Of a stretch of DNA of 64,000 nucleotides, positions 33,001-36,000 are shown one piece after another. Made by a program: the position numbers. Each line of letters starts with the position of its first letter. Position 1 is the stretch's first letter. Origin of the DNA: Escherichia coli (GTDB lineage: Bacteria > Pseudomonadota > Gammaproteobacteria > Enterobacterales > Enterobacteriaceae); NCBI RefSeq assembly GCF_046105845.1, contig NZ_CP151004.1; one strand, 5' to 3'.

Positions 33001-36000
33001 GCAGAGCAGTGATACCAGCGAAGAGATAATGTCTGGCAGTTCCGGCCCAATGAAGTTAGAGCTGAGGTATTGAGCAATGGCAAACGAACCACCTGCAACC
33101 ACGACCGCAGGCCACGTTTCTTTGATTCCGCGCCAACCGTCCATAATCGCCATGATCCAGAACAGCACGATAATGGTCATAAACGGCAGCTGACGCCCCA
33201 CCATCTGACCAATCTCAAAGCTGTCGATGCCTGTTACCTGCCCTGCGACCAGAATCGGAATACCCATCGCGCCAAATGCCACTGGCGCGGTGTTAACAAT
33301 CAGGCACAGCCCGGCGGCGTACAGCGGTTTAAAGCCCAGGCCGACCAGCAATGCGGCGGTAATTGCTACCGGTGCGCCAAAGCCTGCGGCTCCTTCAAGG
33401 AAAGCGCCGAAACAGAAACCGACGATCAGCATTTGCAGGCGCTGGTCAGGGGTTATCGAAAGAATAGACGAGCGGATGATGTCAAACTGCCCGGTTTTCA
33501 CCGAGATCTTATAGACGAACACCGCTGCAATAATGATCCACGCGATGGGCCACAAACCGTAGAAGAAGCCATAAATCACCGAGGCCAGCGCGTTAGCGAC
33601 CGGCATTTTATAGAACAGCAAAGCCACGGCAAGGGCGATTGCCACCGTCCATGAGGCGGCGACATAACCTTTGAGTTTGAGCTTAATCAGCGCAAAGAAG
33701 AAAAACAGGATGGGAAGCGATGCTATCAGACTGGAAAGCCAGATATTCCCGGCGGGATCGTAGTTTTGTTGCCAGAGATTCATTGCAGGTCTCCTGGAGT
33801 CCACGCACATCGTGTAATGAGTCTGATGCTCATCTCCTTGTCACACGTTGTGTAAAAGTGGTACTGCCAATTGTGTTGTGTAGGGATAATGACAATGAAT
33901 GGTTAACTAAATGTTATGTATTGGCAACATTGATGTGAGTTTTAATTGGAGTTCTGTGAACCAGAGGTCAGATAAGCGAAGAATTGGTAGGGCCAATTCT
34001 TCGTGGAGGGAGATGTCTGGTAAAGAAAAGGGCAATCCTCATCAGAGAATTGCCCTTAGATTGTTGACCCGGAGTGCCTTATCTTGCCGGATGCGGCGTG
34101 AACGCCTTATCCGACCTACAGGAATGTGCTGAATCACCCCGTAGGCCTGATAAGCGTAGCGCATCAGGCAATGTGGCGTTTACCCATGCGTTAATGGATC
34201 ATTACCACTGAATACCGGCACCGAGCGCGGCGGAGTATTCACCCTGGCTATTGGTACTACCTTGTAATTTGTAGACCCAACGACCATTGGCGCTCACCAT
34301 CGACACACCTAAAGCAACAGCCGATTCACCGTTGTAAGTACCGCCACCAATAGAGGCCATGCTGGCACCTGGAGTGTAAGCCTGCGGCAGACCGGTCATT
34401 GCCATTGCAGAAGCGATACCACCGCTCAACTTGCTTTCGGTTTTGGACAGTTTGTTATCCATCTCAACCATCCGCTGATCGGTATATTGCTTCGTTTCCT
34501 GCACGCTTTGCTTCAGCTGCGCATAGTTCACTGCGTCGTTGTTGTTCACGCCAGCGGAGACGTTGCTGATGCGAGTCGTACCGCCATTACCACCACCGAG
34601 AGTGATGTTGCTGTAGTCTACAGAGCCATCAGCTTTGGTGTCGTAACGAACGCCGCCTGCCTCAGAAGACTTCAGCTGCGAAACGTTAACCGCATCGGTG
34701 GCATTAACACCTGCAGCAACGTTGGTGATACGACGCTGGTTGGTAGAAGAACCCACAGAGATGGTATTTTCTTCGTTGGCCACGGAGCCTGTACCCAGCG
34801 CGACGCTGTTGTCAGCGGCAGCAATGGAACCAGAACCAATCGCAACACTATCTTTACCCTGCGCGTTGGCATCTACGCCATCGGTGTTGGTCTTGAAGTA
34901 CTTGGTGCTACCGGTGGTTACAATGTCGCCAATACCGTTTTCGATATTAGTAACGCGAGTATCCAGATTAGTGACCTGATTGTTCAGGTTAGTAATGCTC
35001 TGGGTATTTTGCGCTACGCGCTCATCAGTGACTTTCAACTGACCTACGTTAACCGCATCGGTATCCGCTGAACCAGCCGCGACGTTGGTGATCTGACGTT
35101 GACCGTCTTCACTACCGACAGAGAATTCACCGACAGAATTCTGCGGTGCGTCCATGTTGTAGGCGGTGTAATCAGTTTGCGCACCACGGGTGGTCTGGGA
35201 ACCACTACCCATCGCAATACTGTTTGCATGATTTGCACTCGCGTTGCTACCGATAGCAATACCGTTGATTGCATCAGTTAACACCAGAGTGTTCAGGCCA
35301 ATACCGATCCCTGCATCACCATTAACAATGGTTTTCGCACCCATTGCCAGCGAGTCTTCACCGACAGCCAGTGAATCTTCTTCCGTTGAATTAGCATGGA
35401 AGTATTTGGACGGTGTCGTTGCTACGGCACCAATCGCATTCTGCAACTGGCGAACCGTAACGGCGTCATGGGCTTCGGAACCATCGGCGACGTTGATGAT
35501 TTGACGATATTTACCGTCATCACCAATCGACAATGCACCGAGCAGTTCGCCATCAGTGGTGTTATAACCAATGACTACGCCATCTTCGGTTACGCTGGTA
35601 TCACGGGAGCCCTGAAGGATGACACGGTTAGATACAGAACTGCTGCCCAGAGCAATTCCAGATTCAATAGTACTGCTGCTGTTCTGTCCAATTGCCACAC
35701 TGCTATCGCCTGATGCGACGGAGTTATAACCTACAGCTGTAGCGCCCACACCCGTAGCACTGGCATCCGCAAAGACTAAACCGCTGTCGTTAGTACGCAC
35801 ATAGTTGATACCTTCACCGTTCTCTGTGATATAGCTTTCGCTGGTATCACCGGCAATATTCTGGATCAACATATTTGTGGCATTTAACTGGGAGCCGTTA
35901 ACCGCGTCGGTGCTGGTTTCGTTAATCTGACCATTGGCTACGTTGGTAATGACACTGGCTTTGCCATCATGGCTAGCGTTAAACGCACCGTTTTCACCTG

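Follow-up and report, generated by a model that had tools for sequence, protein, structure and literature searches.

The adhesin-lldP spacer of an Escherichia coli genome is the known lldPRD control region, preceded by an intrinsic terminator and a dispensable repeat pair

We analysed a 64,000-nucleotide stretch of an Escherichia coli genome (assembly GCF_046105845.1, contig NZ_CP151004.1), hereafter the window, and within it the 418-bp spacer (34201-33784) that separates an adhesin gene from lldP and is read on the minus strand, in descending coordinates. On that strand the gene order is a gene of the DUF3251 type, the adhesin, the spacer, lldP, lldR and lldD. The adhesin is a trimeric autotransporter of 1808 aa (34202..39628, minus strand) and the positional orthologue of EhaG/UpaG; it shows the Pfam domains ESPR, YadA_head, YadA_stalk and YadA_anchor, annotations of its orthologues read YadA-like family protein or EhaG, and its stop codon, TAA, occupies 34204-34202. 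It had been predicted to belong to an operon, and it does form a two-gene unit with the upstream gene that RefSeq names after DUF3251. The coding sequence of the L-lactate permease gene lldP (32128..33783, minus strand; ATG at 33783-33781) bears this name in the RefSeq annotation of the orthologous loci, and is followed in the same operon by lldR (31352..32128, minus strand), which encodes a GntR/FadR-type regulator with Pfam matches to GntR (3.8e-22) and FCD (3e-24) and has an orthologue annotated lldR. The spacer itself holds nothing new: it is the already known, well-characterised lldPRD control region, in front of which stand an ordinary terminator and two dispensable repetitive extragenic palindromic (REP) sequences. 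In transcript order, the adhesin stop codon is followed by 32 nt, a Z-type REP, a 21-nt linker, a Y-type REP, ~28-30 nt, the terminator, a further 21 nt and the first LldR operator (O1). On the sequence evidence, these elements very probably make up two adjacent and functionally separate modules, namely the 3' end of the adhesin unit and the known lldPRD promoter.

O1 lies at 33982..33998 (positions −105..−89 with respect to the lldP transcription start) and reads AATTGGTAGGGCCAATT on the plus strand and AATTGGCCCTACCAATT on the minus strand, which is the lldP strand. Its sequence is identical to the K-12 LldR box listed in Table 1 of PMC10272880 and in Table 1 of PMC7660256, its distance to lldP is the same as in K-12, and in K-12 the site is bound by PdhR as well. 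The original prediction had described here a perfect PdhR/LldR-type box inside a 27-bp dyad; the box, the dyad and the assignment to a GntR-family operator, which is the published O1, all stand, whereas the word perfect does not, the box scoring 13/14 on the PdhR consensus and 12/14 on the LldR consensus. The 17-bp box sits in a perfect 27-bp dyad (33977-34003) with 11-nt arms and 5 nt between them. In K-12 the arms measure 9 nt (23-bp dyad), and it is one extra base beside O1, G in the window versus C in the closest relatives, that makes up the 27 bp. Past close relatives the flanks of O1 are unconserved beyond the 17-bp core, which is all that other genera retain; as a strain-specific trait the 27-bp extension was dropped, and only the core was treated as meaningful.

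The second LldR operator, O2 (33856..33872; +22..+38), reads AAGTGGTACTGCCAATT on the plus strand, departs by one mismatch from AATTGG-N5-CCAATT and aligns with the second LldR box of K-12 lldP, AAgTGGcactgCCAaTT, in Table 1 of PMC10272880. At its position 7 (33862) the window has T where K-12 has C, and with this base the box agrees with the LldR consensus at 11/14 positions instead of 10/14. The same C-to-T change is present in strain A42. Both 17-bp boxes of the window match the LldR consensus AAnTGGTCnGACCAnTT and are identical (O1) or near-identical (O2) to the sites bound in K-12. A weaker, half-site-bearing element had been proposed at 33867-33885, of which only CCAATT (33867-33872) belongs to the operator; the partner half-site is on the other side, and the true box begins 4 bp outside the overall stretch that had been flagged. 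In the suggested comparison with the published lldPRD operators, O1 agrees letter for letter, while the second operator had been misplaced and is the box at 33856-33872.

The two operators are 126 bp apart from centre to centre, that is, ~12 helical turns, and flank the promoter upstream of lldP, with the cognate GntR/FCD regulator, lldR, encoded in the operon. Boxes with at most one mismatch occur twice in the 64 kb, against a mean of 0.48 in shuffled sequences, and 9 of 100 shuffles held at least two, so that two boxes per 64 kb are on their own only mildly unusual. That they are not chance occurrences follows from their identity to experimentally defined sites and from the fixed gap of 108-109 nt that separates them in 30 loci. 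These loci came from a scan of the exact O1 17-mer across 100,044 species genomes, which returned 44 stretches; in 30 of them the 17-mer is upstream of lldP, in ~29 species of Escherichia, Citrobacter, Kosakonia, Klebsiella, Enterobacter and Pluralibacter. Each of these 30 lldP-linked loci carries an O2-like box past O1 at the said gap, and in each the start of lldP lies 196-203 nt beyond O1. In K-12, genomic systematic evolution of ligands by exponential enrichment (gSELEX) with LldR yielded its highest genome-wide peak (62.9) at the lldP promoter, where both boxes agree with the sites of Aguilera et al. 2008; the lldP fragment was also shifted by LldR in an electrophoretic mobility shift assay, with binding at low concentration, and lactate induction was lost in an lldR mutant (all PMC10272880). 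When set beside the K-12 lldPRD (lctPRD) system, the window shares the identical O1, the 126-bp spacing, a 110-nt 5' untranslated region (UTR) and lldR within the operon, and differs in one base of O2, in the extra base beside O1 and in its upstream neighbour, which is yibL in K-12 and the adhesin gene here.

Over the core promoter, at 33900..33942 (−49..−7), extends a three-direct-repeat site for phosphorylated ArcA (ArcA-P) whose 18-bp ArcA box occupies 33900-33917; the original prediction contained neither this site nor the terminator. Over its full 43 nt it is identical to TGGTTAACTAAATGTTATGTATTGGCAACATTGATGTGAGTTT, the sequence that Park et al. 2013 (PMC3798270) give for lldP, at the same position and with no difference detected. 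There the site is placed at −49 to −7 and credited with an 18-bp box of 17.8 bits, peaks in chromatin immunoprecipitation (ChIP) and 5-fold repression. The closest known system is the three-direct-repeat ArcA-P site at lldP (Park et al. 2013, PMC3798270; Lynch & Lin 1996). Its element GTTAACTAAATGTTA has one mismatch to the 15-bp ArcA consensus, and TGTTA-type direct repeats 11 bp apart overlap the promoter.

Between O1 and the lldP ATG no insertion or deletion distinguishes the window from K-12. The published ArcA coordinates −49..−7 map to 33942..33900 and therefore put +1 at 33893, 110 nt before the ATG, with O1 at −105..−89 and O2 at +22..+38; by this transfer from K-12, the lldP 5' UTR would extend over 110 nt (33784..33893, minus strand). 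A −35-like hexamer, TTGCCA, can be read at 33922..33927 (−34..−29), its TTGC being invariant over 15 aligned sequences, and the −10 region, TAACCA (33905-33900), is poor. A consensus scan found no sigma-70-like promoter in the spacer, a result that is uninformative in this case, the promoter being real but endowed with a poor −10. Both the poor −10 and the empty scan fit a promoter that would need LldR at O1 as an activator. Glucose repression of the lldP promoter has been reported (PMC8689689), and inspection by eye of the surroundings of the conserved TCACA motifs, from O1 to the −35, revealed no acceptable TGTGA-N6-TCACA site for CRP.

Regulation at the locus may be pictured along the looping and activation model of LldR at O1 and O2 summarised in PMC5412874 and PMC8689689. 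Without lactate, LldR dimers at both operators would loop the DNA and repress transcription; with L- or D-lactate, O2 or the loop would be released, and LldR at O1 would activate a promoter with a good −35 and a poor −10. In anoxia, ArcA-P on the three direct repeats across −49..−7 would impose repression, and PdhR could also occupy O1. In this strain, LldR binding and lactate-dependent regulation at the operators, as well as binding and regulation at the ArcA site, are expected from the identity of these elements to the K-12 sites.

Some further conservation surrounds these sites. Between O1 and O2 (33868-33942), and beyond the ArcA repeats, TCACA motifs at ~−75 and ~−45 are conserved across genera together with the TTGC of the −35; the ~−75 motif reads TTCACA. 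Directly 3' of O2, at 33841-33855 on the minus strand (+39..+53 of the lldP mRNA), lies an inverted repeat, TTACA-N5-TGTGA, which is near-invariant in 27 aligned sequences from ~25 enterobacterial species and has a looser second copy, TTACACGATGTG, at 33817-33806. We know of no published site at this repeat. Within the lldP 5' UTR lies a small hairpin, GAUGAGC...GACUCAU (33816-33834, minus strand), in which Kosakonia and Pluralibacter carry a few compensatory changes; considered as a conserved RNA structure, it was rejected, since 4 bp and a consensus energy of −2.2 kcal/mol are too weak a basis for the claim.

The adhesin side of the spacer ends in a Rho-independent terminator (34020..34057, minus strand), recognised by a terminator scan and by folding as AAGGGCAATTCTC-TGAT-GAGGATTGCCCTT followed by TTCTTT, and predicted to end the adhesin transcript, or that of yibL in K-12. 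Its hairpin comprises 13 pairs and a 4-nt loop, precedes UUCUUU and folds with −20.9 kcal/mol (z = −5.3). It lies downstream of the stop codon and between the REPs and O1, and the kilobase scanned holds no other terminator-like site. The element is identical in six of six E. coli strains compared, among them K-12, A42, O157:H7, PEC1021 and NRZ14408, and nearly identical in SCPM-O-B-8794; in E. albertii three positions of the stem-loop differ. Of 5426 complete E. coli genomes, 5419 carry a single copy of the 277-bp block that holds terminator and promoter. Structure and conservation together argue that the terminator functions as such, and it would stop RNA polymerase before lldP.

Upstream of the terminator, the two oppositely oriented REPs that had been predicted at 34086-34170 proved real. 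The Y-type REP (34086..34119, 34 nt) reads GTAGGTCGGATAAGGCGTTCACGCCGCATCCGGC on the minus strand, with one mismatch to its pattern, and the short Z-type REP (34141..34169, 29 nt) reads GTAGGCCTGATAAGCGTAGCGCATCAGGC on the plus strand, with none; shuffles of the window produced 0 matches to either pattern. Each is an imperfect GC-rich palindrome after GTAG, and both belong to a high-copy, dispersed, extragenic class: queries containing the REPs found a median of at least 34-38 matching places per E. coli genome. The genome count of the full doublet is confounded by paralogous bacterial interspersed mosaic elements (BIMEs), and the ~1,700 records with a best place of at least 90% identity are only a rough guide. 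Under the definitions of REP, BIME and GTAG given in PMC8266576, the inverse arrangement of Y and Z, with their GTAG ends facing each other across a 21-nt linker (34120..34140), is that of a BIME. The pair resembles the E. coli BIME/REPIN family of Y and Z REPs mobilised by TnpA_REP/RAYT (PMC8266576) in its GTAG-preceded palindromes of 34 and 29 nt, inverted about a short linker, in its extragenic location and in belonging to a many-copy family; it differs in being a single unit, with no tandem array, and in a C-to-T change in the stem of the Y copy (GTAGGTCGG). A cognate TnpA_REP/RAYT gene would be expected at another place on the chromosome. Rfam gave sub-threshold matches only, of which the one to naRNA4, a REP-derived family, is simply the REP. 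The name of the short Z, z1 or Z2, comes out differently under the lengths given in PMC8266576 and under the older nomenclature. In RNA, the Y REP folds into a hairpin of −18.2 kcal/mol, and Y and Z together pair into an 89-nt hairpin of −43.8 kcal/mol (z = −5.5). The pair would thus represent a one-unit BIME/REPIN ~32 nt past the adhesin stop codon that, lying upstream of the terminator, is transcribed into the adhesin 3' UTR as a long hairpin and offers at most mRNA protection from 3' exonucleases or some attenuation.

The state of the REPs varies across strains. The full doublet is present in the window, A42, SCPM-O-B-8794 and E. albertii. O157:H7 86-24 has the region collapsed to GCCTGATGCG-TTA-CGCATCAGGC, a 23-nt perfect palindrome, and in PEC1021 and NRZ14408 the REPs are absent and the terminator begins ~20 nt past the stop codon. 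In K-12, which lacks the adhesin genes, what remains of the region immediately follows yibL, namely the Y REP with the adjoining linker and the CTAC of the Z REP; the deletion junction therefore lies inside the Z REP. In all strains where the REPs are missing, collapsed or cut to one (PEC1021, NRZ14408, O157:H7 and K-12), the terminator and O1 are kept unchanged.

These comparisons bear on what the REP pair does. The original prediction had it insulate lldP from transcripts running out of the adhesin operon, a role compatible with the very stable RNA hairpin (−43.8 kcal/mol) and with the BIME-linked transcription attenuation attributed to Espeli et al. 2001 in PMC8266576. No U-tract follows the REPs, however, and a canonical terminator stands ~28-30 nt downstream, between them and O1. 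The decisive argument comes from the strains themselves: PEC1021 and NRZ14408 without any REP, O157:H7 with its palindrome and K-12 with one REP all preserve that terminator and O1. Insulation is best assigned to the terminator because it is conserved and the REPs are optional; we therefore consider it very unlikely that the pair is itself the insulator, and likely that the terminator is the barrier to read-through into lldP. Alternatively, the pair could act in the 3' UTR to stabilise the adhesin mRNA, its presence or absence tuning adhesin levels among lineages. Its location within the transcript, ahead of the terminator, and its long hairpin would suit such a role, REP protection from 3' exonucleases is established according to the citation of Higgins et al. 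1988 in PMC8266576, and the REPs are polymorphic among the strains compared; yet the terminator hairpin already supplies a stable 3' end, and neutral gain and loss of mobile repeats would account for the polymorphism just as well, which leaves stabilisation a tentative possibility. The stronger proposal, that presence, collapse or absence of the doublet is non-neutral and determines, lineage by lineage, how stable the EhaG/UpaG mRNA is and perhaps how much read-through still reaches lldPRD, appears rather unlikely; were it true, a mobile repeat would be linked to variation in adhesin expression beside a lactate-utilisation operon. The pair is best read as a dispensable, RAYT-mobilised repeat of the adhesin 3' UTR that may have a small influence on mRNA stability or attenuation.

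On the promoter side, two other identities can be considered for the stretch around O1. The operator might chiefly serve PdhR, placing lactate uptake under pyruvate control, instead of LldR. It matches the PdhR box AATTGGTnnnACCAATT at 13 of 14 positions, is listed as such a box bound in PdhR gSELEX, and in a pdhR mutant the lldPRD mRNA is elevated 3.3-fold (PMC7660256). Like the PdhR box of the pdhR-aceEF-lpd promoter, O1 is a palindrome of the type bound by these paralogous GntR/FadR-family proteins, and PdhR selected it in gSELEX; it differs from that box in its half-site (GCCAATT versus ACCAATT), in a weaker PdhR signal than at pdhR and in a disputed role. The gSELEX signal of PdhR at O1 was modest, 632-943 versus ~9,900 at pdhR (PMC7660256), whereas the lldP promoter is the site of LldR's highest peak genome-wide (62.9), is bound at low LldR concentration and ceases to respond to lactate in the lldR mutant (PMC10272880). 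We thus regard a chiefly PdhR-dedicated O1 as unlikely. Alternatively, the stretch from O1 to the terminator could encode, on the plus strand, a small RNA (sRNA) homologous to the Salmonella candidate STnc380, whose Rfam family (RF02055) matches 33957-34066 on that strand (31.5 bits, E = 2e-4) and whose consensus indeed holds an O1-like box and a hairpin. The score falls far under the gathering score of 60, and on the plus strand the hairpin has no U-tract and an A-rich run on its 5' side, which makes it a terminator for the minus strand, opposite to that of the match. The conserved pieces are, moreover, fully accounted for as operator and terminator, and the literature searched for STnc380 yielded matches to STnc3800 alone. 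We did not treat the window as a member of the family and deem such an sRNA highly improbable; probably, the Salmonella STnc380 family was itself built on the orthologous adhesin-lldP spacer.

Several points weigh against the division of the spacer into a terminated adhesin unit and an LldR-controlled promoter. All functional assignments for this strain are transferred from K-12. Reportedly, Aguilera 2008 placed the LldR operators at −105/−89 and +22/+38 and gave lldP a 5' UTR of 110 nt. The sole cross-check on these figures is how exactly they match the sequence and the −49..−7 interval of Park 2013. The Term-seq supplements searched contained no entry for yibL or lldP, and thus no 3'-end mapping for the terminator. 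Aguilera 2008 is said to have ruled out PdhR at lldPRD. The role of this regulator there is nevertheless disputed, repression being reported in PMC7660256. Finally, BIMEs are reported to attenuate transcription (Espeli et al. 2001, as cited in PMC8266576), which would allow the REPs some share in insulation.

The lldPRD control region is textbook-level and already in use as a part for lactate biosensors (PMC8689689, PMC5412874), and little is at stake scientifically in finding it here. The check is useful mainly as a calibration of sequence-only reading: O1 and the REPs had been spotted, O2 had been misplaced, and the ArcA site and the terminator had been missed, hence the attribution to the REPs of a function most likely performed by the terminator. 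The REP polymorphism between strains, on the other hand, offers a modest, inexpensive natural experiment on what REPs do in a 3' UTR.

As for the surroundings, the lldPRD-trmL segment of the window shares 99.4% identity with several complete E. coli genomes, NRZ14408 being the top-ranked match. The first gene of the adhesin unit (39672-40355, minus strand, 227 aa) owes its DUF3251-type name to the RefSeq annotation of orthologues and had no Pfam match at E ≤ 1e-3; together with the adhesin, it presumably forms an arrangement resembling Salmonella SadB-SadA. Finally, a sequence akin to a REP arm, CTTCGCTTATCTGACCT on the minus strand, adjoins O1 at 33965-33981 (−88..−72). This sequence resembles the Z REP arm at 82%, has no GTAG and shows conservation in Escherichia alone; it may be the relic of an old REP in the region upstream of the promoter.

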